NCBI RefSeq assembly: GCF_046119375.1
Contig: NW_027362761.1
Location: forward strand, 334,862,001 to 334,926,000
Length of the DNA stretch: 64,000 nucleotides
Source: Phyllobates terribilis
Taxonomy: Eukaryota
Direction of reading: 5' to 3'
Made by a program: the position numbers and the translations under genes. The notes beneath the pieces are model-generated. The model had not been told where the DNA came from, did no database searches, and saw only the letters and a program-made list of their open reading frames with translations. This document shows positions 4,329 to 50,099 of the stretch, piece by piece (position 1 is the first letter of the stretch; each line of letters opens with the position of its first letter).

Positions 4329-4769
4329 AGGGGTTGTCTGGTCAATAGTGATACGTCTGCAGTCACTCTGTGTGACTGCAGAGTTATGAGTCCCTCCAGC
4401 ACAGGCATTGTGTGCTGTGGGGATTCACCGGTATGAGACCCGGTAACAGAGAGTATGTATGTGTTATACTTACCCCGGCCAGTGGGCGTGGCCTCATTCT
4501 CCATACACTTGTATTGCGCGAGGCCACGCCTTCTAGTCGGACCCGCCCACTGGACATCCAAGTCACTAGATGGGGCATGGCCTCACTCCATACAGGTATA
4601 TGGAGCGAGGCGGCGCTGAATGGCCGGGGGTAGGTATAACGTATACATATCCTCTGGTCCCGGGTCTCATACCGGCAAATCCCCGCAGCGCACCGTGCCT
4701 GCGCTGGAGGGATTCATAAGTCTGAAGTCACACAGAGTGACTGCAGACTTATCACATTTGACAACCCCT
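4329..4769. mobile_element. Foldback MITE, T2-like (Kolobok-type): TTAA TSD, AGGGGTTGTC termini
   Basis: TTAA 4325-4328 | AGGGGTTGTC ... GACAACCCCT | TTAA 4770-4773. Nearly the whole element is an inverted repeat. Confidence 0.85.
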
Positions 4770-11160: not shown

Positions 11161-12305
11161 TATATGCAAGTAGAAACAAGATGGAAATGTCCAGCCATCA
11201 TACCGCTCAGGAAGGAAACGGGTTCTGTGTCCCAAAGATGAACGTGCTTTGGTCTGCAATGTGCATATCAACCCAAGGACAAAAGCAAAAGACCTTGTGA
11301 AGATGATGACAGAAGCTGGTAAGATTGTGTCAATATCCACAGTGAAAAGATTACTGTATCAACATGGGCTTAAAGACCACTCTGCCGGGAAGAAGCTATT
11401 ACTCCAAAAGAAACATAAAAAAGCCAGATTAATGTTTGTAAATGCACACAGGAACACAGACCTTAATTTTTGGAGACATGTTCTGTGGTCTGATGAAACT
11501 AAAATTGAACTTTTTGGGCATAATGACCATCATTACATTTGGAGGAAAAAGGGAGAAAGTTGGAAGCCAAAGAACACAATACCAACTGTGAAACACAAGG
11601 GTGGCAGCATTATATTGTGGAGTTGTTTTGCTGTAGGAGGCACTGGTGCACATCACAAAATAGATGGCATCATGAGAAAAGAAAATTATGTGGCAATACT
11701 GAAGCAACATCTCAAGACATCAGCCAGGAAGATATAGCTTGGGCCGAAATGGGTCTTCAAAATGGAAAATGACCCAAAACAAACTGCCAAAATGGTAACA
11801 AAGTGGCTTAAGGATAACAAAGTGAAAGTTTTGGAGTGGCTGTCACAAAGCTCTGATCTCAATCCTATTGAAAATTGATGGGCAAAGCTGAAAAGGCAGG
11901 TGCGAGCAAGGCGACCTTCAAACCTGCATCAGTTACACCAGTTTTGTCAGGAGGAATGGGCCCAAATTCCAACCAACTATTTTGAAAAGCTTGTGGAATG
12001 ATATCCAATATGTTTGACCCAAGTCATTCAGTTTAAGGGCAATGGTACCAAATACTAATGAAATTTATGTAAACTTTTAAAAATGTCTTAAAACATTCTC
12101 TCTCTCTCTCATTATTCTGGCATTTGTCAAATATTAAAAATGATGGTAATCCTTATTGACCGAAAACGGGAAAGGTTTATTCTGATTTCATGTCAGATAT
12201 TGAGAAAAACATGCATATGTGTATTTTAATATATAGTGTATGTAAACTTCTGGTTTCAACTGTAGATGGCACCTGATTATAAAAAAATTGCCAAAATACG
12301 TTTAA

Positions 12306-12510
12306 CCCCTTCATGACTTTTGATGTATAGGTATGTCAAAGGTCATGTCCCTGCTTTTGATGTGGGCTCTGACGCTGAGCCCGCATCTTTCAGCTGTCAT
12401 GTGCCGTTAATAACCAAGGGTGGATCATAGATCCATCTGCGGCTGTTAACCAGTGAAATGCAGCTGTCAATCACTGACAGTGGCATTTAACAGGCACCGG
12501 CAGAAGCACG
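12306..12510. mobile_element. piggyBac-like terminal fragment
   Basis: TTAA|CCCCTTCATGAC start; no partner end found. Confidence 0.4.
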
Positions 12511-12517
12511 TCACAAG

Positions 12518-12600
12518 TAGTGTTGAGCGAATTTGTTTGGCATTTCAAATTCGGGTTCGTGTTCGCGCCAAGAAATCGGCTTTCCACGAACATCCTTGAT
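12518..12600. mobile_element. Orphan hAT terminus (TAGTGTTGAGCGAA) with TTCG subterminal motifs
   Basis: Same terminal 12-mer as the hAT ends at 40263 and 47948. Confidence 0.55.
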
Positions 12601-13752
12601 TTGAATTGTCATGACAGCATGGAGATCTGTAGAAGACCCATGTGCCTGTCATTGTAAATCTCCTATGAATGCCAGCGACACAATACAATACCAGACATTA
12701 AAAACATCATGTTAGGTTTTGAATGACAGTTTTCTTTAACAAGATTTCTTCTAGTCAGTCTTAATATGCGCTAATTTTATAATAGTGCATTATACTTGCT
12801 GCATTATACTATGTATGAACAGTTAGAAATGCTACATCTGTACAGTATATATAGTAAGGGCTGGACCCCCTACTCGAGAACTGCACCACAAACCCACAGA
12901 ATACCGTATACTTCTATAGTATATCTGTACAGTATATAGTCAGATCATGCCCCATCTATCATTATTATAAAGAACTTAATTAACACACTCCAATTTCCTC
13001 ATGGCATCTATAGTACATCTTATTTCACAAAGGATCAACAATACCATGAGGATGAGTCTTTTCCATTCCAATATTGGTTTAGTAATTGATTCATTTATTA
13101 CAGTGGCTATTCATCACTCCCTTCTTTGGATTGTTACGTATTTTGTTACATTACAACCTGGGTTTAAATATTTTTGTAATCCGATTTGTGTGTGATGCAT
13201 TAGCACTAAGTAGTCTAAGTTTGTGAAGTGAAGTTACAAAAATATAGGCATAAATTAAATTTATGGGATCAAAAAACTATAAATTGACATGTGCATGTGT
13301 ACTATTCACTCCTTTTGCTATGAAGCCCCTAATAATTTCTGGTGCAAGCAATTCCCTTCATAAATCACATGCTTAGTGAAAGGAAGTCCATCTGTGTGCA
13401 ATCTAAGTGTCACATGGTCTGTCAGTATATACACACCTTTTCTAAAAGGTCACAGAGGCAGCAACACCATTACGCAAGAGGCACCACTAACCAAACAACA
13501 CCATGAAGACCAAGGAAACCTCCAAACAAGTCAGGGACAAAGTTGTTGAGAAGCACAAGTCAGGGTTGGGTATAAAAAAATATCCCAATCTCTGATGACC
13601 CCTTGGAGCACCATCAAATCCATTATCATCAAATGGAAAGAACATGGTACCACAACAAACCTGCTAAGAAAGGGCCGACAACATAAACTCTCAGCCCAGG
13701 CAAGGAGGGCATTAATCAGTGAGGCAGCACAGAGACCAAAGATAAGCCTTAA

Positions 13753-14097
<345 letters not shown>

Positions 14098-14442
14098 TAG
14101 GGGAATATGATGGTGCGAAATTCAGGGATATTCTTGAGTTATTTTTTTTTTCTAAAAAAAAAAAACCTTTAAATGTATCCAAATAAGGAATAATCTGACA
14201 TAGTCTTATAATTAAATATGCAATTCTTTATTGAACTTAGCAAACAACCATCATTAAAAACTACTTGCCCCTAAAATCCCAGTTAAAACCAATGGGCAGT
14301 GTTGTATACAGGTAAGATTGTGACATATAAATAATTATATATATCACTGATCAAATGCACATTTTACAGTATACAAATCAATAGCCATATCATGATTAGG
14401 CATATAAATACACAGAGTATACAAATCAGTGACGATATCACA

Positions 14443-14446
<4 letters not shown>

Positions 14447-14506
<60 letters not shown>
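14447..14506. repeat. (TA)n microsatellite that received two Tc1 insertions; continues at 16156-16165 and 17794-17830
   Basis: Pure TA run. The homologous run in the right arm is at 19884-19935. Confidence 0.95.
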
Positions 14507-14512
<6 letters not shown>

Positions 14513-16155
14513 TATGAAAAAGTTTGGGCACCCCTATTAATCTTAAGCTTAATGTTTTATAAAAATTGGTGTTTTGCAACAGCTATTTCAGTTTGATATA
14601 TGTAATAACTGTTGGACACAGTAATGTTTCTGCCTTGAAATGAGGTTTATTGTACTAACAGAAAATGTGCAATCTGCATTCAAACAAAATTTGACAGGTG
14701 CATAAGTATGGGCACCTCACCAGAAAAGTGACATTAATATTTAGTAGATCCTCCTTTTGCAAAAATAACAGCCTCTAGTCGCTTCCTGTAGCTTTTAATG
14801 ATTTCCTGGATCCTGGATGAAGGTATTTTTGACCATTCCTCTTTACAAAACAATTCCAGTTCAGTTAAGTTTGATGATCGCCGAGCATGGACAGCCCTCT
14901 TCAAATGATCCCACAGATGTTCAATGATATTCAGGTCTGGGGACTGGGATGGCCATTCCAGAACATTGTAATTGTTCCTCTGCATGAATGCCTGAGTAGA
15001 TTTGGAACAGTGTTTTGGATCATTGTCTTGCTGAAAGATCCATCCCCTGCGTAACTTCAACTTTGTCACTGATTCTTGAACATTATTGTCAAGAATCTGC
15101 TGATACTGAGTGGAATCCATGCGTCCCCCAACTTTAACAAGATTCTCGATGCCGGCATTGGCCACACAGCCCCAAAGCATGATGGAACCTCCACCAAATT
15201 TTACTGTGGGTAGCAAGTGTTTTTCTTGGAATGCTGTGTTTTTTTGCCGCCATGCATAACGCCTTTTTGTATGACCAAACAACTCAATCTTGGTTTCATC
15301 AGTCCACAGGACCTTCTTCCAAAAAGAAATTAGCTTCTCCAAATGTGCTTTTGCATACCTCAGCCGACTCTGTTTGTGGCGTGCTTGCAGAAACGGCTTC
15401 TTTCGCATCACTCTCCCATACAGCTTTTCCTTGTACAAAGTGCATTGTATAGTTGACCGATGCACAGTTACACCATCTGCAGCAAGTTGATGCTGCAGCT
15501 CTCTGGAGGTGGTCTGAGGATTGTCCTTGACTGATTTCACCATTCTTCTTCTCTGCCTTTCTGATGTTTTTCTTCGTCTGCCACTTCTGGCCTTAACAAA
15601 AACTGTCCCTGTGTTCTTCCATTTCCTTACTATGTTCCTCACAGTGGAAACTGACAGGTTAAATCACTGAGACAGCTTTTTGTATCCTTCCCCTGAACAA
15701 CTATGTTGAATAATCTTTGTTTTCAGATCATTTGACAGTTGTTTTGAGGAGCCCATGATGCCACTCTTCAGAGGAGATTCAAACAGGAGAACAACTTGCA
15801 AGTGGCCACTTTAAGTAGCTTTTCTCATGATTGCATACACCTGGATATGAAGTTCAAAGCTCAATGAGGTTACAAAACCAAAAAAAGTGCTTTAGTAAGT
15901 CAGTAAAAAGTAGGTAGGAGTATTTAAAACAAGAAAATGATAAGGGTGCCCATACTTATGCACCTGTCAAATTTCGCTTGAATGCAGATTGCACTTTTTC
16001 TGTTAGTACAATAAACCTCATTTCAAGGCAGAAACATTACTGTGTCCAACAGTTATTACATATATTAAACTGAAATAGATGTTTCAAAAACACCAATTTT
16101 TATAAAACATTAAGCTTAAGATTAATAGGGGTGTCCAAACTTTTTCATGTAACTG
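14507..16155 (-). mobile_element. Young Tc1 (DD34E, ~200-bp IR/DR TIRs), copy 1
   Basis: TIR (C>T)AGTTATATGAAAAAGTTTGGGCAC ... TTTTTCATGTAACTG|TA; 1649 bp. Confidence 0.95.
14734..15756 (-). pseudogene. Tc1 transposase, 340 codons, single nonsense codon (codon 31 TGA)
   Basis: MGSSKQLSNDLK start at 15756, TGA at 15664-15666. The rest is open, with WTDETK, QQDNDPKH and SPDLNIIE (DD34E). Confidence 0.92.
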
Positions 16156-16165
16156 TATATATACA

Positions 16166-17793
16166 CAGTACAGACCAAAAGTTTGGGCACACCTTCTCAT
16201 TTAAAGATTTTTCTGTATTTTCTTGACTATGAAAATTGTACATTTACACTGAAGGAATCAAAATGATGAATTAACACATGTGGAATTATATACTTAACAA
16301 AAAAGTGTGAAACAACTGAAAATATGTCTTATATTCTATGTTCTTCAAAGTAGCCACCATTTGATTTGATGACTGCTTTGCACACTCTTTGCATTCTCTT
16401 GACGAGCTTCAAGAGGTAGTCACCAGAAATGGTCTTACAACAATCTTGAAGGAGTTCCTAGAGATGCTTAACACTTGTTGGTCCTTTTGCCTTCACTCTG
16501 CGGTCCAGCTCACCCCAAACCATCTTGATTGGGTTCAGGTCTGGTGACTGTGGAGGCCAGGTCATCTGGCGTAGCATCTATCACTCTCCCTCTTGGTCAA
16601 ATAGCCCTTACACAGCCTGGAGGTGTGTTTGGGGTCATTGTCCTGTTGAAAAATAAATGACGGTCCAACTAAACGCAAACCGGATGGAATAGCATGTCGC
16701 TGCAAGATGCTGTGGTAGCCATGCTGGTTCAGTATGCCTTCAATTTTGAATAAATCCCCAACAGTGTCACCAGCAAAGCACCCCCACACCATCACACCTC
16801 CTCCTCCATGCTTCACGGTGGGAACCAGGCATGTAGAGTCCATCCGTTCACCTTTTCTGCGTCGCACAAAGACACGGTGGTTGGAACCAAAGATCTCAAA
16901 TTTGGACTCATCAGACCAAAGCACAGATTTCCACTGGTCTAATGTCCATTCCTTGTGTTCTTTAGCCCAAACAAGTCTCTTCTGCTTGTTGCCTGTCCTT
17001 AGCAGTGGTTTCCTAGCAGCTATTTTAACATGAAGGCCTGCTGCACAAAGTTTCCTCTTAACAGTTGTTGAAGAGATGTGTCTGTTGCTAGAACTCTGTG
17101 TGGCATTGACCTGGTCTCTAATCTGAGCTGCTGTTAACCTACGATTTCTGAGGCTGGTGACTCGGATAAACTTATACTCAGAAGCAGAGGTGACTCTTGG
17201 TCTTCCTTTCCTGGGGCGGTCCTCATGTGAGCCAGTTTCTTTGTAGCGCTTGATGGTTTTTGCAACTGCACTTGGGGACACATTCAAAGGTTGCCCAATT
17301 TTTCAGACTAACTGACCTTCATTTCTTAAAGTAATGATGGCCACTCGTTTTTCTTTATTTAGCTGCTTTTTTCTTGCAATAATAGAAGTTCTAACAGTCT
17401 ATTCAGTAGGACTATCAGCTGTGTATCCACCTGACTTCTGCACAACACAACTGATGGTCCCAACCCCATTTATAAGGCAAGAAATCCCAGTTATTAAACC
17501 TGACAGGGCACACCTGTGAAGTGAAAACCATTTCCGGTGATTACCTCTTGGAGCTCATCAAGAGAATGCCAAGAGTGTGCAAAGCAGTCATCAAAGCAAA
17601 AGGTGGCTACTTTGAAGAACCTAGAATATAAGACATATTTTCAGTTTTTCACACTTTTTTGTTAAGTATATAATTCCACATGTGTTAATTCATAGTTTTG
17701 ATGCCTTCAGTGTGAATGTACAATTTTCATATTCAGGAAAATACAGAAAAATCTTTAAATGAGAAGGTATGTCCAAACTTTAGGTCTGTACTG
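16166..17793 (-). mobile_element. Tc1-superfamily element of DD38E type (Intruder-like)
   Basis: TIR CAGTACAGACCAAAAGTTTGG ... CCAAACTTTAGGTCTGTACTG|TA. Transposase remnant ~16329-17380; restoring one base gives 38 residues between the second D and the E position (here AAG). Confidence 0.85.
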
Positions 17794-17917
17794 TATATAT
17801 ATATATATATTTTTATATATATATATATATAATGGGCACCATGACAGAAACAGCTAAATATTGATTATATCTATCAAGAGTACAAAGCATGTGCCACAGT
17901 GACAATACCAAACTGCC

Positions 17918-17966
17918 CAATACCCCTATGCGCGCTTCGCATTTGTTGCTTCCTCGGTGAGTACTG
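17918..17966 (-). ncRNA. Degenerate minimal hammerhead (PLE1 inverted left arm)
   Basis: Reverse complement: CAGTACTCA-CCGAGGA-AGCAACAAATGC-GAAGCGCGCATA-GGGGTATTG. Confidence 0.55.
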
Positions 17967-18435
17967 AGGCAACGTGCAGCTTGAATATATATAGCAAAAT
18001 GAGGGGGATTAAGCCCAACCTACTGCCTATCATGTTTCAGTATTGCTTCATTATGCATAAATACCTTTTTTCCATAATTTTGCTGCCCATTGTGAGCTCC
18101 AAAGAGGGTGGGGGATGTCATGCCCACCCAATGTACTGTCCGTGTATATGGGAGAAGCTGCGATGCCTGCCTCACTTCGTCCTCCGTGCCCGGTGTCCCG
18201 GAAGTCAGACCACCCATGCGCACGCGGCAGGACCTCCGATAGGATGCCAGGGAGGGAGAGGCTCAGTGGCACAGCGCAGGTGCAGACCCACGATGTGCAT
18301 CAAGAAACCATATTGTGAATGGGCAGCCCATTGCCCATAACCCTAAACATACAATATCAATGTCAATATCCAGGATACCTCTAAAATGTAACAGTCTCCA
18401 GTTGCATCTATGATAATCCCTAAAATGCTTACCCG

Positions 18436-18691
18436 AAACTCGTAAGAATACTTGAGCACATAAAAGACATAAGAAATGCAGCAAAATGTGACAAACCTGA
18501 GGAACTGACATTATTAAAAAAATCCCAAAGCATTTTAGGGATTACCATAGAAGGTATTGATAAGGTTAGCAAGAGGGGATAATCTTAAAAAGATATTAGA
18601 ACAAAAAGAAATTAAATAGATCATCGCACTAGACATGGTAAAACAGAGAGGACTAAATGATATGATTATCTTTGCCCCCTTTTTGGTGTAA
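18436..18691 (+). pseudogene. Penelope GIY-YIG endonuclease C-terminal remnant
   Basis: Across two frame changes it reads KLVRILEHIKDIRN...IPKHFRDYH / EGIDKVSKRG / DNLKKILEQKEIK*IIALDMVKQRGLNDMIIFAPFLV*. This fits the RxxEH...HF...H...E..WI..L....GLN pattern of PLE endonucleases. Confidence 0.8.
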
Positions 18692-19726
18692 CTCACGACA
18701 CTGCTGATGGGGATAGTTAAGGATTAGGGAGGGATTCTGATCTAAAATACTGTTCATCTCATTTGCTATTTTAATGCTGTCTGAAATAATTGGTAAAATT
18801 GGTTACTTTAGAGGGATTAATGTGCAATATAATATATGGGCTCTTAGCTGAACATATGTAGAAACTATTTGAAATCTGGTACATTAATATTGTCAGATGT
18901 AGACATTTAATTAATATTTATATGAATTTATAATTTATAGTGAATCATTAACAACTTAATAATATGGCACTACTACCTGACTGTATAATTAATATTTATT
19001 TGACTTTACAACCTATAGTGATGTACCAATGATTTAGTAATATGGCACTACTAACTGACTGTTTAATTTCTACTACTAACTTAATGTCTAATCTAACCAC
19101 AGCTTGGATTATACCCTTACTATCAATGCCTACAACATGAGAATTTAATCATAATCTGGACTGTGTCATTACTAACCTTACCTGCAATACTGAAAAAACC
19201 CAAGAGGGCGACTTAACCCTGAAATTGAACCAACAGTTGCTGATGCTGAAGGAATATAAGATTAATTAATTATTTATCTGATTGTATACTTTAATAATAT
19301 TGTGAAGGTATCCTGGATATTGACACCGCTGGTTTCTTTGTATGTTTAGGGTTATGGGCAATGGGCTGCCCATTCACAATATGGTTTCTTGATGCACATC
19401 GTGGGTGTGCGCCTGCGCTGTGCCGCTGAGCCTCTCCTCCCTGCCTGTCGTCCTATCGGTGGTCCTGCCGCGCGCATGCATGATCTGACTTCTGGGACGC
19501 TGGGCACGGAGGATGATGCAAGGCCGGCATCACAGCTGCGCCCATACACACAGACAGCGCATTGGGTGGGCATGACATCCCCCACCCTCTTTGGAGCTCA
19601 CAATGGGCAGCAAAATTGTGGAGAAAAGGTATTTATGCATAATGAAGCAATACTGAAACATGGTAGGTAGCAGGTTGGGCTTAATCCTCCTCATTTTGCT
19701 ATATATATTCAGACTGCACATTGCCT

Positions 19727-19774
19727 CAGTACCCCCGAGGAAGCAACAAATGCAAAACGCGCGTAAGGGTACTG
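19727..19774 (+). ncRNA. Degenerate minimal type I hammerhead ribozyme (PLE1 right arm)
   Basis: CAGTACCC-CCGAGGA-AGCAACAAATGC-AAAACGCGCGTA-AGGGTACTG: stem I, a CUGANGA-like core, stem II GCA/UGC, palindromic stem III ACGCGCGU. U4 and G12 are altered. Confidence 0.65.
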
Positions 19775-19883
19775 GGCAGTGTGGTATCGTCACTATGGCA
19801 CATGGTTTGTACTCTTTATAGATATAATCAATATTTAGCTATTTCTGTCATGGTGCCCATTGTGCATATAGTCCACCTCTATA

Positions 19884-19919
<36 letters not shown>

Positions 19920-20193
19920 TATATATATATATATACAATTGTGATATGGTCACTGATTTGTAAACTCTGTGTATTTATATAATCATGATATGGGTATTGA
20001 TTTGTATACTGTAAAATTGGCATTTGATCATTAATATATATAATTATTTATATAAAATCAAGTGAGGGTCGCTCACTGTTGATAGTGGGTGCTCTGGAGT
20101 AAATTATACCAAACTCAGTTCAAAGAGAAACTCCGGCACTCCAATGTGAATGCAAAGAATATTTATTTAGATAAACCCCACATAGGAGAAGTC

Positions 20194-20230
20194 GGCCAAC
20201 GTTTCGACTTTTATGGTCTTCGTCAGGGCC
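20194..20230 (-). ncRNA. Minimal type I hammerhead ribozyme with complete core
   Basis: GGCC-CUGACGA-A-GAC(CAUAAAA)GUC-GAAA-C-GUU-GGCC: all core nucleotides present, palindromic ACGU stem III, GUU triplet. Confidence 0.75.
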
Positions 20231-20878
20231 TTTTCTAGATATAGGTAAAAAACAGAACACAGAAAATAAATCATACAAGAATATGGACCATATGTGTCAA
20301 AGTATAAAGCAAATATCATTAAAAAGGTGTAAATAAAAAATCTAACCAGAAGCTCAATGCGTTCCACTGCACTCCACAATGCCTTTTGCGTTCTAGCACG
20401 AGCACTGGAAGTATGTCACATCGCACTGCGCATGACCGGAAACAGCCACACGCAGCCAGCACACATGCCGCCTGATCTTTCACAACAGGTACGCTAATCA
20501 TATGAGGTATATAAAGAGGGCAACACTGATTGGCACATCACACGGCATTACCTACTGCTACCATTTTTCTATAAGCACCCCCGCACCTACAGATATGTAT
20601 ATGATCTGGTATATTTCTATTCATCTTCATGAGACCCTCTACTTTCACTATTTGGTATTAGTGACAGAGCTATGCTACCATACCTATAGTCTTTTCTTGA
20701 GATATATTGACTAGCCAATGTTACATGCCGGTTTGTCAGTTTCCTATCCCACATTATATGTATATAGATTTTTGATTTACATCTTTACAATGATATTTGC
20801 TTTTTACTTTGACACATGTGGTCCATATTCTTGTATGATTTATTTTCTGTGTTCTGTTTTTTACCTATATCTAGTAAA

Positions 20879-20915
20879 GGACCCCAAAAAGACCATAAAA
20901 GTCGAAACGTTGGCA
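20879..20915 (+). ncRNA. Core-mutated copy of the PLE2 hammerhead
   Basis: GGAC-CCCAAAA-AGACCATAAAAGTC-GAAACGTT-GGCA. Confidence 0.5.
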
Positions 20916-21873
20916 GACTTCTCCTATGTGGGGTTTATCTAAATAAATATTCTTTGCCTTCACATTGGAGTGCCGGAGTTTCTCTTTGAACTATAATTAT
21001 ATTTATATGTCACAATCTTAATTGTATACCACACTGCCCATTGGTTTTAACTGGGATTTTAGGGGAAAGTTTTTAATGATGGTTGTTTGCTGTGTTCAAA
21101 AAAGAATTGTATATTTAATTATAAGACTATGTCAGATTATGACTTATTTGAATACATTTAAAGGGTTTTTTTTGCGAAAATTTACGAATTAGGGATACTT
21201 CCCTTTCATTATTAATGGATCTACAGTATATATCCTAGTAGTGCTGATATTCTTGAGCTGTACCTGTTTCAGTCTGTCAGTGATTTGAGGCTGGGATGGA
21301 GGTTCATCTTCCAACACGACAATGACCCAAAGCATACTGATAAAGCAACACTCGAGTGGTTTAAGGATAAATGTGTAAATGTTTTGGAGTGGACTAGTCA
21401 AAGCCCAGACCTTAATCCAATTGAGAATCTGTTGTCAGACTTGAAGATTGCTGTTCACCAGACGAAACCATCTAACTTGAAGGAGATGGAGCAGTTTTGC
21501 CTTGTGGAACAGACAAAAAACTCAGTGGCAAAATGTGCAAAGCTCATAGAGACATATCCAAAGTGATTTGCAGCTGTAAATGCTGCAAAAGGAGGCTCTA
21601 CAAAGTACTGACTTTAGGGGGGTGAATAGTTATGCAAACTGAATTTTCAGTTACTTTGTCCTATTTGTTGTTTGCTTCACAATAATAAGAAAACCAAATT
21701 TTCACAGTTGTAGGCATGTTCTTTACGTGAACTGATGCAAACCCTCAAAAAAAAACAGTGAAATTCCAGGTTGTGAAGTAGCAAAACATGAAAAATGGCA
21801 AAGAAGGTGACTACTTTCAGAAGCCTCTATATTTGGAACTCACATAAATAAAGCAGCCTGCTCAATATACTTA

Positions 21874-23523
21874 CAGTTATATGAAAAAGTTTGGGCACCC
21901 CTATTAATCTTAAGCTTAATGTTTTATAAAAATTGGTGTTTTTGCAACAGCTATTTCAGTTTGATATATGTAATAACTGTTGGACACAGTAATGTTTCTG
22001 CCTTGAAATGAGGTTTATTGTACTAACAGAAAATGTGCAATCTGCATTCAAACAAAATTTAACAGGTGCATAAGTATGGGCACCTCACCAGAAAAGTGAC
22101 ATTAATATTTAGTAGACCCTCCTTTTGCAAAAATAACAGCCTCTAGTCGCTTCCTGTAGCTTTTAATGATTTCCTGGATCCTGGATGAAGGTATTTTTGA
22201 CCATTCCTCTTTACAAAACAATTCCAGTTCAGTTAAGTTTGATGGTCGCCGAGCATGGACAGCCTTCTTCAAATGATCTCACAGATGTTCAATGATATTC
22301 AGGTCTGGGGACTGGGATGGCCATTCCAGAACATTGTAATTGTTCCTCTGCATGAATGCCTGAGTAGATTTGGAGCAGTGTTTTGGATCATTGTCTTGCT
22401 GAAAGATCCATCCCCTGCATAACTTCAACTTTGTCACTGATTCTTGAACATTATTGTCAAGAATCTGCTGATACTGAGTGGAATCCATGCGTCCCTCAAC
22501 TTTAACAAGATTCCCGGTGCCGGCATTGGCCACACAGCCCCAAAGCATGATGGAACCTCCACCAAATTTTACTGTGGGTAGCAAGTGTTTTTCTTGGAAT
22601 GCTGTGTTTTTTTGCCGCCATGCATAACGCCTTTTTGTATGACCAAACAACTCAATCTTGGTTTCATCAGTCCACAGGACCTTCTTCCAGAAAGAAATTG
22701 GCTTCTCCAAATGTGCTTTTGCATACCTCAGCTGACTCTGTTTGTGGTGTGCTTGCAGAAACGGCTTCTTTCGCATCACTCTCCCATACAGCTTCTCCTT
22801 GTGCAAAGTGCGTTGTATAGTTGACCGATGCACAGTGACACCATCTGCAGCAAGTTGATGCTGCAGCTCTCCGGAGGTGGTCTGAGGATTGTCCTTGACT
22901 GATCTCACCATTCTTCTTCTCTGCCTTTCTGATGTTTTTCTTGGCCTGCCACTTCTGGCCTTAACAAAAACTGTCCCTGTGTTCTTCCATTTCCTTACTA
23001 TGTTCCTCACAGTGGAAACTGACAGGTTAAATCGCTGAGACAGCTTTTTGTATCCTTCCCCTGAACAACTATGTTGAATAATCTTTGTTTTCAGATCATT
23101 TGACAGTTGTTTTGAGGAGCCCATGATGCCACTCTTCAGAGGAGATTCAAACAGGAGAACAACTTGCAAGTGGCCACTTTAAGTAGCTTTTCTCATGATT
23201 GCATACACCTGGCTATGAAATTCAAAGCTCAATGAAGTTACAAAACCAAAAAAAGTGCTTTAGTAAGTCAGTAAAAAGTAGGTAGGAGTATTTAAAACAA
23301 GAAAATGATAAGGGTGCCCTTACTTATGCATCTGTCAAATTTTGTTTGAATGCAGATTGCACATTTTCTGTTAGTACAATAAACCTCATTTCAAGGCAGA
23401 AACATTACTGTGTCCAACAGTTATTACATATATCAAACTGAAATAGCTGTTGCAAAAACACCAATTTTTATAAAACATTAAGCTTAAGATTAATAGAGGT
23501 GCCCAAACTTTTTCATATAACTG
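21874..23523 (-). mobile_element. Young Tc1 (DD34E), copy 2
   Basis: TA|CAGTTATATGAAAAAG ... TTTTTCATATAACTG|TA; 1650 bp. Confidence 0.97.
22102..23124 (-). pseudogene. Tc1 transposase, single nonsense codon (Trp282 to TGA)
   Basis: Open from ATG 23124 to TGA 22279-22281; the frame continues to TAA at 22102-22104. Confidence 0.92.
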
Positions 23524-24863
23524 TATATAAAGTGAGGTCGTGCTAACAAGACAACTTCTGTCCAGAAGTGTGCATATCACATACCTCAAAGGTGTTCTCG
23601 GTTCAGAAACCGGCGAATCCTTGCAGTGCACAATATGTGCACTAGGGGTTTCGAAAGTCTGCAGTCACACAGAATGGCTGCAGACTGTTCATTTTGGACC
23701 GGCCAACACCTTGAACGTTAACAATACGCTAAATAACCTTACAGTAGGTTAAAACTTCAATTCCTTTTAGTACATAATTATGAATCAACATATACACACA
23801 TGAATTTGCACTTTATATTTCTGACGATCAACCGGGAATCTTGTTATCCAAACAACTGAATACAAAATGCATTTACAATAAAACTGCCAGGTAAATTATT
23901 AATGCACAACACGTAGCTATTAATCAATTTTCAATTTACCATTCATCATTGTACAATTTGCACAATGCTTCCACTATTAACCTACAATTAACAAAATATA
24001 TTTCTTCCTGGAAGAAATACAACTGTTTTGCCTTTGAGTATCAAGCACAGGAGATATCTAAACCTTTTTAAAAACAAGAAGTGGTAAATGCCATTTACTG
24101 TAAACATTCAACTGACATATCTCCTAGTCCAGATGAAATTTTGAATGGGTATTATAAAAACATAAAAAACTGGCCAGACACATAACATCAGTTTTCAATT
24201 TAGCTATTGGCTCAGGCTTATTCTCTGAAAAAATGCATGGATCTTTGATAGTGAATCTTCATAATGCTTGAAAGGTCCCTGAGTCACCAGAACTTTTTTG
24301 TTCCATTCACTTTTGAACTCAGATGTCAAGTTGAACACAACATAATACTCTCAGGGATTAACTCTGATCAGGGATATTTTTACAATCATCAAGCTTCAAT
24401 TCTAGACTTTTTTTTACCTAATTTGATTAGGAGAGCTTTGTGGAATGCTATCTATTCTAGTATATTTCATTGGGGGTATTACTTTCTTCCTATATGGCTA
24501 ACATTGACCGTTTATCGTGAAAATTTGCTGACATCCATAATGTAAAGGATTTGCTAAGTAAAAGTAAAAACTACTAAGCAATAAGGAACAATTTGATTAA
24601 ATGTAATTTTCTTGTTCATTATTTTAGTACATTCAAGATGGATTTTTGCAAGTTATAAAAATTTGCAATATACATAAAACAACAATTATAATTAAAAAAA
24701 GTTAAAGAATCTCTCATTTCTACAATGACTGCTTTTTATCTTTTCTTCAAAGAGTAACACCTCAAATGTTAAAATGTGTTACTCACCTGTCCCGGCTCAT
24801 CTGCCAGGCCTTGCTTCCTATCCCTATGGCTAGCTATCTTTGTACTAGCCCATGCTAGGTTAC

Positions 24864-32904: not shown

Positions 32905-33435
32905 AGGGGTTTCCCACAAATAAAGTTAAATTTAAATCAATAGGTGTTGAAAAAAATAACAATTTCCACAATTGGATGCGTTAAAAAAATGTTCCTGAGC
33001 TGAGATAATCTTATTAATGTGCCCCTGCTATTTACTGTGTAATGGCTGTGTCTGACCGTGCAGGAACATGGTCTGATCATACCACATCTCCTGGGCAGGG
33101 GAGGAAGCAAAAGGAAGTATAGAGACAGGGATAGGATGGGATCACAGTGGATTTTTAATTTGAGGTAAAACATTGCTTAAAACCAGGCAGTGATATGTTT
33201 TACCTCACAAAAAGAATCGGCTGCGATCCAATACTGTAATGTCTGTATGCTCTCTTTTGCTTCCTCCCCTGCCCAGGAGATGTGGTATGATCAGACCATG
33301 TCTCTGTACAGTCAGACACAGCCATTACACAGCACACAGCAGGGGCACATTTATAAGATTATCTCAGCACAGGAACATTTTATTTAAACACATCCAATTG
33401 TGGAAGTTATTATTATTCCAAGATCTATTGATTAA
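32905..33435. mobile_element. T2-like foldback MITE, right terminus degraded
   Basis: TTAA+AAGGGGTTTCCC start; ~180-bp inverted arms 32945-33125 versus 33240-33415. Confidence 0.6.
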
Positions 33436-34647: not shown

Positions 34648-36096
34648 TAACACTCTCCCTATTAATAGAAATAATCAGATCAGTATTGCACACTTTCACA
34701 CTGTAACAAATATATGCATCTGCCAATTGCAGATTAGTCTATTTGTTAACGGACTGGTTTCCTTGGACTCACTACTGTACAATGTTCACTACAAAATATC
34801 ATGACTTAAAAAAAATAATAAATTAAGTAAACTGGCTGCAGATCTAAAATAAGACATTCTTTCTAACAATCACTTCAAATGTTTCTCTAATTTATCTCCC
34901 TGTACAGAATGCATAAGAAACATAAATAGCATGTACATTCTAATACAGAGTATAAATGATCATAGCACTTGTAAGGTGCGCAGCGCAGTAGTCATTGGTG
35001 AGGGGCTGCAATTTTCCCACACCCTGTCATCCCATAAATAAACAGTGTCCCAGTTCCCATGTGCTTTAGGTGCAATGCAGTACACTCACATTCAGGCCAT
35101 ACATAAATCAGGGGACATTTGCTTCAAAACCAAAAGTTCAACTTTACTTAGTAGTCCATGTTTAATTGATGTTACAGCACGGAACATTTCCATGTTCTCT
35201 GTTCGCTCGGCCTGAGCTATCCCTTTGCTAATGGCTCCCATGGCCCTGGAATACTCCATCTGGCCCCGCAGCTTTTATGAGTCCTGTCCCACCTCCTTCA
35301 CATGTTTTCCTGTCAGGCTTCCCCTTGTGGGAAGGGAATAAGACACATTTCCCGGTGTCTAGTTCTGACCATAGGCCCCGAACATTGAAGGGATGTCGGC
35401 AGAAGACATTAGCCGACATTCTCAGGCTGTCTGAACAGTGCGCACTTCTCGTACCCTCCAGCCCTCTGGCCTTGAACGCTTTCCTTAACTTTCAATCAAG
35501 TCTCTAACTATCTCTATCTGACAAAAACCAGAAAATGCTCCTCTTTGTATAACCTTTCCCCCTCCCTTTCGGGGCTATTCTCGAACATATTAACTGTATA
35601 CTGACCTGCAAAACCACTTCCTGTATCTAATGTGCCCACAACTGAACCTTTGCATTCCTAACTTAATCTCTATATCCTAAGCTATACCTCTGTGGTATGC
35701 TAAACCCTGTACTTTCCCTATAAGCTACAAATTTATTGCATTATAGATCAGTCACATTACATCATAATAACTGCGCACCTTAGTGCCTATAATATGCTTT
35801 GAAGTTTCATGTTTTACATCACTCATACAATACAATAAAACCATGTCATAACACATATTCAAATACAGTTCTTAAAGACGTTGTCTTTAGGGAGAGAGGT
35901 ATATGACAGCTCCTGTCACACTCTCGCACACTCATACTTTAAACACTTATCGTCTATATAATTTCAATAGAATCTCAATAAAGTATGCCCACAAAAACTT
36001 GTGTCTTCCTATTTTACTATATTTTACTCTTTATAATACAAAATAACTTGGGATTTGCTTTATTGATTTTTTTTCATTAAAATATTAGGATATTTA

Positions 36097-36939
36097 CACT
36101 GTGTTCCAAATTATTATGCAAATAATATTTTCTCATATTTTCCCAAATTACCTATATGAATTGCAGTCATTGTAATTTTCCAATCAAATAACTATTAGAG
36201 TACAATTGAAAGGTTTTTGAACAAACTGCCTATGATAACAGTATATTTTTAAAAAAATAAAAAACTCAAACTGCACTCAAAATGCATGTTCCAAATTATT
36301 ATGTCTCATGCTGCACATAACACATCTGCATCACTGGCTGCTGTGGACATAAAAGGGGACAAACTTATGGTGTGGCACCCATACTCCCCTGACCTCAACC
36401 CCATTGAGAACCTCTGGAGCATCATCAAAAGGAGTGTCTATGATGGCGGGAGGCAGTTCACATCTAAGCAACAGCTCTGGGAGGGTATTCTGTCCTCATG
36501 CAAAACAATTGAAGCAGAAACCATCCAAAACCTGACAAATTCAATGGACGAGAGAGTTCAGAAGCTCCTTTCGAACAAGTGGTCCTATGTGCAAATGTAA
36601 CATCACCTAGAATAAAGTTTTGAGTTGAAAACTGTTTGATTTCAGTTTGTAATAACCTGCTAATGCTTATAATTTCAAAAATTACCATTTTTTGTTCTTT
36701 ATTAAAATGAAAAGGTTGAAAACTCTGCTGTGCATAATAATTTGGAACATGCATTTTGAGTGCAGTTTGAGTTTGTTTTTTTTTTTTAAATATACTGTTA
36801 TCATAGGCAGTTTGTACAAAAACCTTTCAGTTGTACTCTAATAATTATTTGACTGGAAAATTACAATGACTGCAATTCATATAGGTAATTTGGGAAAATC
36901 TGAGAAAATATTATTTGCATAATAATTTGGAACACAGTG
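36097..36939 (+). mobile_element. Internally deleted Tc1 (843 bp)
   Basis: TA|CACTGTGTTCCAAATTATTATGCA ... |TA with ~210-bp TIRs. Keeps the transposase C-terminus (SPDLNPIENLWSIIKR). Confidence 0.9.
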
Positions 36940-37775
36940 TACATGAGCAGTAACATTTTAAGGTGCTAGTTATTGCCACTGAGGAAATGGCCTGCTGTTT
37001 GCTCTTTCTTAGTGCCATCTCCTTGATACTTTGGCCCATTCCTAACTCCCTTGCAGGCAAACAAGGCACTTTCTAGATAAGTGGAATCCAAAAAAGGAGC
37101 TTGTCTCCCAGGAAAATGGATGACAACAAGGGCTACCTATATGATATGTACACCCTTGATGGAAGGCAAGATGAAAATCATCATGAATATTTATATGGCA
37201 TTGTAGCTACATATGTATAATGTAATATAATATCAAAAGGATTATCATAGCTGTAATAATAGCTACATTTAGAAGAATTTTAAATAACCAGATTTCTTAC
37301 TGAATATTGAACAATTGAAAAGAAGTAATTCCAGAACTCATAGTGGGGTAAAAAAAGCTTCTAAATTTTGATATTTGGTGTCAATTGAATGTAGGATAAC
37401 CTTGAAAAGGATCATCAGAGCCAGCGATATCTTCAAAACATCTCCATTCTCTGAGATACAAAGCAGCTTTTGCTGTCTTCACTGGCTTTGAAACAGAGGT
37501 GAAATAGAAGCATGTCGGAATTCAATGATCACCAAGAAGTAACGTTGCCAGAAATATAAAGAAAACAAGTACAAAAGTATAATTCTTTCAGAAAATATAC
37601 TTAATATTTGATTTTTATCTCCACTAGAATGAATCACCACAAACGTCAGACTTCAGGAGAAATATTAGAAAGTACACTTCTAACACTTCATGTCAGTCAC
37701 ACTGCATTTGCAAAGTTTCATCACTTATCAGACAAACATGACCATGAAGCAGTAAAATAATAGAAAACTCTTTAA

Positions 37776-38049: not shown

Positions 38050-38501
38050 TAAGTTTAGAGGCTATATTTTGGGACATCTGTCTTAACACCATCTGTCATC
38101 ATCTGAGATAAGTCTCCCATTGTTTATAACATCGCTATCATATGATTTGTATGTTTATACTTTATCTGTGTTAGGTTGCATTGGATTGTAATGCAACAAT
38201 TTGTTTAGTTAGAGGGCTATCCAGGGTTAGCGTCGGAGAGCCGCCGTGGAGTGAGGGCGCCATATCGCCAACTTTAACTAGGGTGAATAGCTTTTTTAGA
38301 TCCAGGGTCTGGACAGTCTATTTCTGTGCGTTGTAATATTTGGTCTCTAATTTTAGAGACTTGTGGGAGACTTATTTGTCTTGTTTTTATTGTAAGCACC
38401 TTGTCACTTTACACACTTTTGTCACTTATCATCTAAGGGCACCGAGAAACACTTGTAACATATAACATATAGGGCCTTTTTCTAATCCATTAGTTGTTAT
38501 A

Positions 38502-40128
38502 CAGTTATATGAAAAAGTTTGGGCACCTCTATTAATCTTAAGCTTAATGTTTTATAAAAATTGGTGTTTTTGCAACAGCTATTTCAGTTTGATATATGTA
38601 ATAACTGTTGGACACAGTAATGTTTCTGCCTTGAAATGAGGTTTATTGTACTAACAGAAAATGTGCAATCTGCATTCAAACAAAATTTGACAGATGCATA
38701 AGTATGGGCACCCTTATCATTTTCTTGTTTTAAATACTCCTACCTACTTTTTACTGACTTACTAAAGCACTTTTTTTGGTTTTGTAACTTCATTGAGCTT
38801 TGAACTTCATAGCCAGATGTATGCAATCATGAGAAAAGCTACTTAAAGTGGCCACTTGCAAGTTGTTCTCCTGTTTGAATCTCCTCTGAAGAGTGGCATC
38901 ATGGGCTCCTCAAAACAACTGTCAAATGATCTGAAAACAAAGATTATTCAACATAGTTGTTCAGGGGAAGGATACAAAAAGCTGTCTCAGTGATTTAACC
39001 TGTCAGTTTCCACTGTGAGGAACATAGTAAGGAAATGGAAGAACACAGGGACAGTTTTTGTTAAGGCCAGAAGTGGCAGGCCAAGAAAAACATCAGAAAG
39101 GCAGAGAAGAAGAATGGTGAGATCAGTCAAGGACAATCCTCAGACCACCTCCGGAGAGCTGCAGCATCAACTTGCTGCAGATGGTGTCACTGTGCATCGG
39201 TCAACTATACAACGCACTTTGCACAAGGAGAAAGAAGCCGTTTCTGCAAGCATGCCACAAACAGAGTCAGCTGAGGTATGCAAAAGCACATTTGGAGAAG
39301 CCAATTTCTTTCTGGAAGAAGGTCCTGTGGATTGATGAAACCAAGATTGAGTTGTTTGGTCATACAAAAAGGCGTTATGCATGGCGGCAAAAAAACACAG
39401 CATTCCAAGAAAAACACTTGCTACCCACAGTAAAATTTGGTGGAGGTTCCATCATGCTTTGGGGCTGTGTGGCCAATGCCGGCACGGGGAATCTTGTTAA
39501 AGTTGAGGGACGCATGGATTCCACTCAGTATCAGCAGATTCTTGACAATAATGTTCAAGAATCAGTGACAAAGTTGAAGTTATGCAGGGGATGGATCTTT
39601 CAGCAAGACAATGATCCAAAACACTGCTCCAAATCTACTCAGGCATTCATGCAGAGGAACAATTACAATGTTCTGGAATGGCCATCCCAGTCCCCAGACC
39701 TGAATATCATTGAACATCTGTGAGATCATTTGAAGAGGGCTGTCCATGCTCGGCGACCATCAAACTTAACTGAACTGGAATTGTTTTGTAAAGAGGAATG
39801 GTCAAAAATACCTTCATCCAGGATCCAGGAAATCATTAAAAGCTACAGGAAGCGACTAGAGGCTGTTATTTTTGCAAAAGGAGGGTCTACTAAATATTAA
39901 TGTCACTTTTCTGGTGAGGTGCCCATACTTATGCACCTGTTAAATTTTGTTTGAATGCAGATTGCACATTTTCTGTTAGTACAATAAACCTCATTTCAAG
40001 GCAGAAACATTACTGTGTCCAACAGTTATTACATATATCAAACTGAAATAGCTGTTGCAAAAACACCCATTTTTATAAAACATTAAGCTTAAGATTAATA
40101 GGGGTGCCCAAACTTTTTCATATAACTG
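38502..40128 (+). mobile_element. Young Tc1 (DD34E), copy 3
   Basis: TA|CAGTTATATG ... CATATAACTG|TA; 1627 bp, i.e. 23 bp shorter than copy 2. Confidence 0.97.
38901..39900 (+). pseudogene. Tc1 transposase with TGA at codon 31, a 23-nt deletion and Trp282 to TGA
   Basis: TGA 38991-38993, deletion near 39231, TGA 39721-39723, TAA 39898-39900. Confidence 0.92.
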
Positions 40129-40919
40129 TATCTATAAAGAGGATAAAAAAAAGGGTGATGACCAGATGAATACAAGAGACGGATCAATTATGGATATATA
40201 GATATCATTTCTGGTGAGAATCGTCTTTATTTACCCTATGTAGGCAGTAGATGGTTCATCAGTAGTGTTGAGCGAGCACTAAAATGCTCGGGTGCTCAAA
40301 GCTCGGGCCGAGCTCACCGTGATACTCTGGTGCTCGACCCGAGCAACGAGCCCAATGTTAGTCTATAGGACACCCGAGCATTTTTGCAGCAGCACCCCCG
40401 GCAGTCTTTTAAAAGCCTAACAAGTGTCCAAAACGATAGTTACAGTGCTCAAATGACATGGGGACAGCATGGGGATCACCCCAGGAAGCATTTCTGACCC
40501 CCAGGTCACTGCTGTCAACAACTTGGTCAGAGGTATTAAGCCACTTTTATGGGCTCACAATAAAACGTTCAAAAACGAAACTGAAACTGCTTTAGTGTGA
40601 AATATGTTAAGGGAGTTCCTTTCCAGAGTAAAGACTTGTGTATAAGGTAAAATAAATAACCCCCCCAAAAAATACTCCTCCACACCTTGGGCTATGTTCA
40701 CAAGTAGCATTTTTTATGCGTTTTTGCCCTTGTGTATTGCTTTCAACCGTGACAAATGCATTCACCGGGAAATGTAATTTTAACATTTTGCAACCTTATC
40801 TGGCCATGTGCTGTGTGACACTTGCATACAGTGCTGAAAAGACATGGGAACAGCATGGGGAAGACCCCTGGAAGCATCTCTGACACCCAGGTCACTGCCT
40901 AAAAGTGTGCCCATCAGAA

Positions 40920-48400: not shown

Positions 48401-49069
48401 GACAATTTATAACAGACAGAATAGAGCTTCACACATAGATTAGATAGATAGAAACATGTCAGTCACATATATAGGAAGTACAGTGACAGTGTTGATTACT
48501 GTACTTGTCATTTAGTGTTAAAATAAAGGATTTATTTAAAAAAAATTGGCGTGGGGTTCCCCTTAATTTTAGTCTCTAGCGGAGGTTAAACAGATGGCTG
48601 GGGCAGATGTTTGAAGCCTGGGAAGGGGGTAATACCCACGGAGCTTCCCAGGCTACTAATATGAGCCCCCAGCTGAATACCTAGCCTTTACTAGCTATTA
48701 AAATGGGGGACCCCCTCAAAAAAATGACGTGGGGTCCCCCCTAATTTAATAGCTAGCAAAGGCTAGGCAGACAGCTGGGGGCTGATATTAATAGACCAGG
48801 AAGGGTGCCATGAATATTGGCCCCCTCCCCGGCTAGAAACACCAGCCGTCAGCCGCCCCAGAAATGGCACATCCATAGGATGCACCAATTCTGGCACTTA
48901 GCCTCACTCTTCCCACTGCCCTGTAGCGGTGGCAGTGGGGTAATAGGGTTGGGGTTGATGTCAGCTTATAATGCCAGCTGACATCAAGCCCAGGTTAGTA
49001 ATGGAGAGGCGTCTATAAGACACCCCCATTACTAACCCCATAGTCAAAGTTAAAAAAAAAAACACAAAC

Positions 49070-49945: not shown

Positions 49946-50099
49946 ATTTTTTTTTTTTAAATACTTTACTAGAAATTCATGGTGGTCATGTCTAATATTG
50001 GCGTGACCCCATGAATTTCGGGCTTAGGGCCAGCTGATAATGCCAAGCTGGCCTTAACCCCTTTATTACGCAGTGAGCCACCGCACTAGGGCCCTGGAT

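Follow-up and report, generated by a model that had tools for sequence, protein, structure and literature searches.

Results

Organization of the locus

The window, a 64-kb stretch of frog DNA, contains at positions 14139 to 21245 an insert that interrupts the transposase of a Tc1-type transposon. The left part of this host transposon (13300 to 14138, start approximate, plus strand) matches residues 98 to 182 of the Tc1-A transposase (49% identity, E 1e-27), and the right part (21258 to 21810, end approximate, plus strand) matches residues 197 to 309 (E 2e-32; Pfam DDE_3 was below cut-off). The two transposase halves are contiguous across the insert. An identical 12-mer, the longest word common to the junction surroundings, flanks it on the plus strand (14127 to 14138 and 21246 to 21257), indicating a 12-bp target-site duplication.

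The initial annotation described a Penelope-like element (PLE) with inverted arms of ~0.9 kb; as a whole, its observation was partly confirmed and its interpretation partly supported. The arms are present, but they are contiguous only when three inserts are removed: two Tc1 transposons on the left (14507 to 16155 and 16166 to 17793) and a nested 0.94-kb element on the right (20054 to 20992). Both left-hand transposons lie on the minus strand in a TA run. The first, Tc1-A, is a younger DNA transposon (Pfam HTH_Tnp_Tc3_2 and DDE_3 above cut-off), with further copies in the window at ~21874 to 23529 (97.5% identical) and 38498 to 40136 (96.3%). The second, Tc1-B, was recognized by Pfam HTH_Tnp_Tc3_2, and its terminal inverted repeats differ in 18 of 271 columns. 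TRF and inspection placed (TA)n at 14447 to 14506, at 17794 to 17831, and, broken by the word TACAGTA, at 19885 to 19935 on the right side.

The TA runs separate an inner element (17832 to 19884) from a pair of outer arms. The outer left arm (14139 to 14446, minus strand) is an inverted copy of 19936 to 20053 plus 20993 to 21173. On the plus strand, the proximal part of the outer right arm (19936 to 20053) differs from the left in 7 of 117 columns, and the distal part (20993 to 21245) runs to 21173 and then into a 72-nt extension that is found only on the right. Over the whole alignment (14157 to 14446 versus 19937 to 20053 plus 21007 to 21173), 18 of 282 columns differ. No further copy of the outer arms was found within the window, the outer left arm had no protein match below E 0.3, and the sense strand of the right one had no CTGANGA match at one mismatch or fewer. 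In sum, the locus is a decayed, 5'-truncated frog PLE of a known kind amid other transposable elements, and it is now inert.

The nested element (20054 to 20992, minus strand) is a second PLE-like stub with 228-nt inverted arms, a one-sided tail of 63 nt, and an AT-rich duplication of ~15 bp. It carries a hammerhead at 20194 to 20230 (minus strand) with an intact CUGACGA/GAAA core and a predicted cut after 20198, the only intact core that the strict descriptor found in the window. The stub had no protein match below E 0.1.

The inner element consists of two head-to-head copies

The forward copy shows, in order, an endonuclease C-terminus (~18433 to 18691), a 3' region (18692 to 19305), a pLTR-like region with the hammerhead (19306 to 19860), and a 24-nt tail (19861 to 19884), all on the plus strand. 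The 3' region, found in this copy only, is AT-rich (70%), contains a 78-nt two-copy repeat detected by TRF, and has single-copy depth in the contigs. The pLTR-like region is shared with the inverted copy in the arm alignment. The tail, a one-sided extension of the PLE type, has no counterpart in the left arm; its depth was ~2x single-copy in runs X1 and X6, and it was uncovered in X5.

The preceding inverted copy (17832 to 18432, minus strand) is 5'-truncated, extends through the pLTR, and lacks the tail. It was delimited by a minus-strand tblastn match (18430 to 18374), by translation, and by a joint, 18551>19306, which a single contig in each of runs X1 and X5 showed at single-copy depth. 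This copy starts inside the ORF at ~18430 and reads KHFRDYHRCNWRLLHFRGI; it retains 26 nt that are missing from the forward copy and then skips 754 nt. Both copies start inside the ORF, and each is bordered on its outer side by (TA)n. The pLTRs therefore have the inverted arrangement with 5' truncation that is seen in EN+ PLEs. Alignment of 17832 to 18354 with 19338 to 19853 (46 of 513 columns differ) agrees with the annotated inverted arms, and the head-to-head copies support the inverted 5' copy proposed there. The 0.9-kb centre between the arms does hold the endonuclease remnant, but the inversion axis (~18432) is inside the ORF, and the main reason why this centre has no pairing partner is that 754 nt were lost from the left copy.

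The endonuclease remnant has frog PLE relatives

The remnant comprises the last ~85 codons of the endonuclease and is damaged by a 26-nt deletion at 18551, frameshifts, and an in-frame TAG. A GIY-YIG C-terminus had been proposed for this centre, and homology to frog PLE proteins bears it out. Within the window, 7 of 11 relatives matched the remnant by tblastn (E 7e-9 to 1.4e-4) and the other 4 did not; a profile HMM also matched it (iE 2.8e-6). It is homologous to the C-termini of P0007, P0008, and P0010 to P0015. The homology can be followed from the remnant to P0007 (53% identity, E 5.5e-4), from P0007 to P0008 (E 5.6e-24), which passes Pfam GIY-YIG (23.6 bits against a cut-off of 22.6), and from P0008 to nine longer proteins. 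Among these nine, DKG is present in 7, the RT motif [WF]xR[YF]IDD in 8, and CxxCxxCxxC in 8, with three of the linker cysteines in the ninth; RVT_1 was seen in 6, below cut-off. All eight longer relatives that carry a species name come from frogs, in line with the presumed frog host. The Penelope-like identity is thus upheld by the GIY-YIG remnant together with longer relatives that are frog PLE proteins with RT and a Neptune-type cysteine linker.

RT and linker are visible in the relatives only; a search for RT in the truncated copy gave no match. The Neptune label comes from relatives matched over ~38 residues at 39 to 50% identity rather than from an RT tree, and it is used here as a probable assignment. 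Pfam returned no family for either remnant frame, and when a word index of proteins was queried with the 40-aa frame, none of 7 candidates proved a match. Of five phmmer matches to the remnant, four were discarded, P0003 and P0006 as tandem-repeat proteins and P0004 and P0005 for unrelated names or Pfam families. Separately, an Atlas search with P0007 returned unnamed chordate clusters, one of them with GIY-YIG on 23% of its members, which we regard as a lead only.

Both pLTR copies carry a decayed hammerhead

The right copy contains a decayed minimal type I hammerhead at 19727 to 19774 (plus strand; sequence, descriptor, and contigs) with C4, G12>A at 19754, a stem I short of one C, and A at 19766; its predicted cut is after 19765. 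The left one (17918 to 17966, minus strand; sequence and descriptor) has C4, GAAG, GCAU, and three stem I changes. The lesions listed in the initial annotation (G12>A on the right, GAAAC>GAAGC and GCGU>GCAU on the left, C at position 4 in both) were all found, but the list had missed A at 19766 and the stem I changes of both copies. Stem I, a short stem II with G10.1-C11.1 and an unpaired A, and a palindromic stem III are recognizable, which supports the type I minimal assignment. The claim that the merged arms give an intact canonical hammerhead did not hold: U4 is absent from both arms, so together they do not rebuild the core. Each arm departs from CUGANGA...GAAA...UH by two core mismatches, and neither copy is canonical as written.

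In a homodimer cofold, the 8-nt stem III palindrome pairs between molecules. For a minimal type I hammerhead of this kind, cleavage after GUA would be predicted to require a dimer, formed via the CGCGCG palindrome of stem III. The two arm motifs are on opposite strands, and therefore one transcript cannot provide both dimer partners. An ATG at 19750 lies within stem II; it is at most a candidate start codon, since the N-termini of the nine longer relatives are unlike the short frame that it opens.

With zero or one core mismatch, the descriptor detected one site in the window, that of the nested element and neither arm. With two mismatches, it detected seven sites including both arms, versus 0 to 3 (mean 1.6) in 10 shuffles. 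The fold z-scores of the arm motifs were -2.2 and -1.6, and no metagenome or viral contig matched the hammerhead pattern. Taken by itself, neither arm motif stands out; family evidence from contigs lifts the motif above chance.

Close relatives in contigs probably mostly carry C4

The contig comparison covered 18433 to 19884 with DNA runs X1, from which the window itself may derive, X5, and X6. The hammerhead segment attracted far more relatives than other parts in contigs of two studies. In X1, depth was 349 to 1021 over 19707 to 19804 versus 12.8 for single-copy parts; peaks in X5 and X6 matched, and the depth peak coincided with the hammerhead segment in all three runs. Run X9, presumably an RNA run, yielded four contigs less than 90% alike. 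Among the variants listed, A>G at 19766 made up 87, 85, and 74% of depth in the three runs (44, 29, and 33 contigs), and an extra C in the C-run made up 61, 60, and 47% (9, 6, and 5 contigs). We read the extra C as C4, because an optimal aligner reports such an insertion only for C4 and not for U4; this reading is indirect and comes from listed variants that include no rows for 19736 and 19754. Close relatives thus mostly have six C's before GAGGA, and the 9-bp stem I is restored in relatives. In loose-end consensuses from X1 and X6, more distant relatives have CTGATGA preceding the stretch that aligns with stem II and GAAA.

The C at position 4 noted in both arms therefore recurs in most close relatives, and the assumption of U4 in the ancestral motif is not supported. 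Because both arms have C4 and 47 to 61% of the aligned depth agrees, C4 is probably a subfamily trait. The subfamily master probably already had U4C, and the remaining lesions would have arisen after insertion.

Origin of the insert and alternative readings

The reading that we prefer, and hold to be somewhat better than an even bet, is that the inner element is a dead, 5'-truncated Neptune-type PLE in the usual head-to-head form, nested in the TA run of an earlier insert. On the simplest view, the 0.3-kb outer arms and the 12-bp duplication would derive from a palindromic insert that the host Tc1 had received earlier and whose central TA run would have served as the PLE target. There, the element's GIY-YIG endonuclease may have nicked the microsatellite. 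Reverse transcription would have begun at internal sites ~95 and 119 nt past the cut, producing the one-sided tail, and ended in the ORF, and a second, inverted copy would then have been made from the same template. The two Tc1s and the second PLE stub would have arrived later. Measured downstream from the hammerhead cut site, the two element ends lie at 95 and 119 nt, and at this one locus (TA)n adjoins both. The TA run is more likely an insertion target than a part of the pLTR, because this end geometry and the one-sided 24-nt tail place the 3' end there. The same observations make doubtful an unusually long pLTR that includes the TA microsatellite. A PLE family with its own pLTR of at least ~0.9 kb, the microsatellite included, and a canonical U4 consensus hammerhead would account for arms that continue past the TA run on both sides with equal divergence, and for the CTGATGA of distant relatives (X1 and X6 loose ends), by which U4 exists in the wider family. 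Relatives, however, diverge at 19811 to 19813 (10 to 11 contigs in each of the three runs), depth declines towards 19884, and close relatives are mostly C4, so that we consider it unlikely.

Arm divergence gave no order for the inner and outer insertions. Non-CpG differences are equal (29 of 462 columns in the inner arms, 17 of 280 in the outer; Fisher p=1.0 for inside versus outside the TA run), a result equally compatible with one event and with two, and a single composite insertion stays tenable. Here a donor transcript would have begun in the PLE, crossed its TA target, and continued into the sequence beyond, and the whole unit of pLTR, TA, and outer arm would have been copied twice head to head; the 12-bp duplication and the 72-nt extension would stem from this single event, and the left 24-nt tail would have been lost later beside the microsatellite. 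In keeping with this, the one clear target duplication lies around the entire 14139 to 21245 unit and not around the inner element, and capture of host DNA beside pLTRs is described for PLEs (PMC3846280). Yet this reading requires a further deletion with exactly the extent of the tail, and the outer end has no hammerhead ~100 nt upstream, unlike PLE ends. Divergence is also a weak discriminator, as similar values occur in the Tc1-B repeats (16 of 267) and the nested arms (11 of 218). We treat the composite insertion as a real but minority possibility. A separate question from nesting is whether the 754-nt gap is a spliced intron (GT 18554 to AG 19307), with the inverted copy made from spliced RNA devoid of the endonuclease end. 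The gap can be placed as GT..AG with a CTGAT word ~30 nt upstream of the AG, but it has a weak polypyrimidine tract, both of its ends carry the 6-bp direct repeat AGGTAT, as in the microhomology deletions of PLEs (PMC3846280), and the single-copy joint contigs of X1 and X5 represent the locus's own left arm; splicing is quite improbable. Most improbable of all is a chance hammerhead likeness in an ordinary foldback repeat. Rfam at E<=10 on 12000 to 24000 gave 19 matches that included no hammerhead and all fell short of the gathering score, and both arms need the two core mismatches at which shuffles also give 0 to 3 matches. The contig family evidence has already largely refuted this reading: the depth peak lies exactly at the motif, and relatives have CTGATGA and restore stem I. 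The motif also follows the end of a PLE endonuclease and lies as far from the element end as expected.

Discussion

The locus resembles the Neptune clade (PMC8557442) in its C-terminal GIY-YIG, 5' truncation, inverted 5' copy, one-sided tail, and microsatellite neighbourhood, and, via relatives only, in RT plus cysteine linker. An insertion bias for microsatellites is stated for Neptune. The tail is 24 nt here versus the usual 30 to 40, and the outer palindrome is extra. Published descriptions of PLEs include inverted pLTRs, one-sided tails, and microhomology deletions (PMC3846280; PMC8557442). Pen2a_Av and Pen2_Av of Adineta vaga (PMC3846280) share the inverted pLTR framing, the one-sided tail, an internal microhomology deletion, a 9- to 10-bp duplication around the whole insert, and insertion into other elements; they differ as rotifer elements, and the word 'microsatellite' is absent from that paper's main text. 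In PAc, the Poseidon element of Anolis carolinensis (PMC11167929), the end also lies ~85 to 120 nt past the hammerhead cut, an ATG is in stem II (here 19750), and the tail equals the interval between two ends. Its cut is 26 nt into the ORF, with RT starts at 111 to 118 nt. The 95/119-nt geometry matches these values, which we counted in favor of the preferred reading. PAc differs in being intact, of the Poseidon clade, and without the cysteine linker.

The motif agrees with published minimal type I hammerheads, ~9,000 of which are reported in Xenopus tropicalis, in its unpaired A between 9 and 10.1, G10.1-C11.1, and predicted dimer; its short palindromic stem III resembles the Marsupenaeus and Aedes rows of the published alignment. 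It deviates in stem I (9 bp versus 2 to 6 in those rows) and at position 4, which is C here versus U in all 44 rows compared, selected with a descriptor that required the core. The same core change occurs in a natural U4C viroid hammerhead (cited in Perreault 2011, PMC3088659), whose activity in vitro is reportedly considerably lower while infectivity is still allowed; that is a viroid ribozyme and not a dimer-dependent retroelement motif. In PAc, protein is needed for cleavage of the hammerhead, which is dispensable for insertion in vitro (PMC11167929). The one unusual trait of the PLE is a hammerhead that probably had a non-standard core letter while its subfamily spread. The case is evenly balanced for a frog Neptune subfamily that amplified with a U4C master hammerhead beside U4 sister subfamilies. 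The literature matches listed hold no report of a U4C subfamily for PLEs, and work on PLE hammerhead variants may cover it.

PLE remnants that are truncated and inverted and bear a hammerhead are plentiful in frogs and have been described before, and the locus itself matters little. It does offer a caution for automated repeat annotation by showing how PLEs and Tc1 transposons nested in a TA run can look like a single long terminal inverted repeat. If the U4C subfamily is real, descriptor searches that demand CUGANGA undercount PLE hammerheads. Either cleavage with the help of a dimer partner or of protein would tolerate U4C, or mobility would not need cleavage and the fold would be kept for another role. 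If C4 is the subfamily consensus, U4/C4 pairs in one genome would be a natural experiment on the need for hammerhead cleavage in PLE mobility.

Structure of the insertion stack

The segment 14139-21245 consists of several insertions stacked within one Tc1 transposase gene. The two halves of the host Tc1 align to transposase residues 98-182 and 197-309, and the gap between them fits exactly the missing residues. A 12-bp target duplication (14127-14138 and 21246-21257) flanks the whole stack. Two younger Tc1 elements (14507-16155 and 16166-17793) lie within the left TA run, and a 0.94-kb element (20054-20992) splits the right arm. Once these inserted elements were removed, the long inverted arms described in the initial annotation were confirmed, with differences in 46/513 columns for the inner arms and 18/282 for the outer arms. 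The young Tc1 family is present in three copies (14507-16155, ~21874-23529, and 38498-40136), which are 96-99% identical and have transposase frames of ~300 codons. TACAGTA words at ~19914-19920 (inside the right TA run) and ~21221-21227 (in a 72-nt extension of the outer arm) are similar in form to Tc1 excision footprints.

Endonuclease remnant

Several protein searches were run with the remnant at 18433-18691. Neither remnant frame alone had a family match in Pfam, and a word-index protein search detected no relative of the remnant. With the 40-aa last frame as query, phmmer returned five proteins, four of which were discarded as repeat proteins or unrelated. All three frames were matched by the protein P0007 (tblastn, best E 7e-9 within the window), which led to P0008, a protein above the Pfam GIY-YIG cut-off. 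P0008 led in turn to nine longer proteins carrying RT motifs and a CxxCxxCxxC linker; eight are named, and all eight are from frogs. In the translated search, 18572-18685 was matched directly by 7 of the 11 relatives, and a profile matched the remnant with an iE of 2.8e-6. The proposed homology to Penelope-like element (PLE) proteins held, and by sequence comparison the assignment of the remnant to a PLE is secure. The cysteine linker is ascribed to Neptune and Nematis (PMC8557442), and a 2026 preprint gives Neptune and Poseidon as the sole PLE clades in its vertebrates. By its longer relatives, the element is a putative member of Neptune.

Inversion axis and the 754-nt gap

The inner element (17832-19884) is arranged head to head, with an inverted copy on the left and a forward copy on the right. 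A minus-strand tblastn match at 18430-18374 translates as the endonuclease segment KHFRDYHRCNWRLLHFRGI, showing that the inverted copy begins within the ORF, with the axis at ~18432. Twenty-six nucleotides deleted from the forward copy at 18551 are still present in the inverted copy, which then skips 754 nt, with a 6-bp repeat at the jump. The identical joint is present in contigs of the DNA sequencing runs X1 and X5. Although the gap is readable as GT..AG (junction 18553/19308), this is far less likely than a microhomology deletion. Most of the centre described in the initial annotation is therefore sequence that the left copy has lost.

Hammerhead motif in the arms and in relatives

The hammerhead lesions listed previously were correct in both arms (right, 19727-19774; left, 17918-17966), and each arm carries additional stem I changes. 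Neither arm motif had a hammerhead match in Rfam or was found by a descriptor allowing at most one core mismatch. A two-mismatch descriptor gave seven sites versus 0-3 in shuffles. As a predicted hammerhead, either arm motif alone is not convincing.

The family-level evidence suggests a hammerhead more strongly. Contigs from X1, X5, and X6 were aligned to 18433-19884 at 80% likeness; X5 and X6 are from one study other than that of X1, and X1 may itself be the source of the window. The hammerhead segment is conserved in the family: X1 depth over 19707-19804 was 349-1021 versus 12.8 in single-copy parts (summed contig depth not being equal to copy number), and the X5 and X6 peaks over this segment match it. 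G at 19766, which restores stem I, accounted for 74-87% of depth. Loose-end consensuses had G at position 12 in X5 and X6, more distant relatives read CTGATGA (X1 and X6), and one X5 consensus with low agreement read CCGATGA. In a homodimer cofold, the stem III palindrome was predicted to pair intermolecularly; for the minimal hammerheads of PLEs, dimer pairing via stem III has been proposed (PMC4209133).

In each arm, a 23-codon frame (19750-19821 on the right) begins at an ATG that lies within stem II of the hammerhead. Relatives stay similar to ~19811, right after a GTTTGT word, a possible splice donor. The N-termini of the nine longer relatives gave no confirmation of a start at this ATG.

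Core position 4

U at core position 4 (U4) had been assumed, and the contig alignment argues against it. An extra C in the C-run was found in 9, 6, and 5 contigs (61, 60, and 47% of depth) among the rows listed. An optimal aligner yields this extra C for six C's before GAGGA, whereas a U4 copy would give an inserted T or C>T, indicating that close relatives mostly have C4. This reading presumes optimal alignment and draws on the rows listed; a further 48 substitution rows and 4 indel rows, with any for 19736 and 19754, lie beyond them. From these alignments, C4 is quite probably the subfamily consensus. With C4, positions 4 and 5 form a CpG, and a T found sporadically among copies may thus reflect decay. 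All 44 rows compared from a published PLE hammerhead alignment have U4, but that survey demanded the core (PMC4209133). In a viroid, U4C lowers in vitro activity and still permits infectivity (PMC3088659), and in vitro insertion by Poseidon of Anolis carolinensis (PAc) was unaffected by hammerhead mutants (PMC11167929). U4C in PLEs was not found in the literature searched, the most relevant paper lying outside that search.

Element ends and outer arms

The shared arm ends at 19860, 95 nt past the predicted cut. Only the forward copy continues for 24 nt more, to 19884, and (TA)n then follows on both sides. For comparison, reverse transcription in PAc starts ~85-92 nt after the cut, with the tail between two start sites (PMC11167929). 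One-sided tails are general among PLEs (PMC8557442, PMC3846280), and an insertion bias to microsatellites is stated for Neptune (PMC8557442). The 95-nt end position, the one-sided tail, and this bias favor the TA run as target site over the earlier view of the TA microsatellite as part of the PLE pseudo-LTR. The Neptune bias is for TA specifically.

The outer arms showed neither a core motif nor a protein match, and the window contains no further copy of them. They have their own 72-nt one-sided extension and are flanked by the 12-bp duplication. Non-CpG divergence is equal inside and outside (29/462 versus 17/280, p=1.0), so it is possible that the whole unit is a single composite insertion.

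A nested second stub and other repeats

The element at 20054-20992, within the right outer arm, is a second PLE-like stub. Its inverted arms measure 228 nt, its one-sided tail is 63 nt long, and it has an AT-rich duplication of ~15 bp. Of the hammerhead cores in the window, only one of its own is intact (20226-20202, minus strand); the core in its other arm is decayed. Judged by sequence, this motif is a better cleavage candidate than that of the initial annotation.

Elsewhere, an element whose inverted ends are 230 nt long (43803-45501) breaks up tandem arrays with 52-nt and 132-133-nt units (42735-46694), and a 147-nt tandem repeat with ~11 copies lies at 55796-57486. Near-perfect palindromes at 49057-49958 and 50127-50979 have 441-nt arms 20 nt apart and nested arms of 149-192 nt; a strict hammerhead descriptor found none in them. 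Small elements at 4341-4762, 32983-33384, and 36092-36944, with terminal inverted repeats of 136-212 nt, are probably MITEs.

Proposed mechanism and present state

In the proposed mechanism, the endonuclease of the element would nick at TA, reverse transcription would initiate internally, and the hammerhead of the ancestor would cleave after GUA as a dimer; the insertion order in the stack is likewise a reconstruction. The structural features of the locus all have published counterparts in PLEs; in Xenopus alone, minimal hammerheads number ~9,000 (PMC4209133). The U4C subfamily is possibly the sole unreported detail. Because the RT is absent, the endonuclease is broken, and the two ribozymes are damaged and on opposite strands, this copy is inert. 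A read-through transcript would form a long hairpin.
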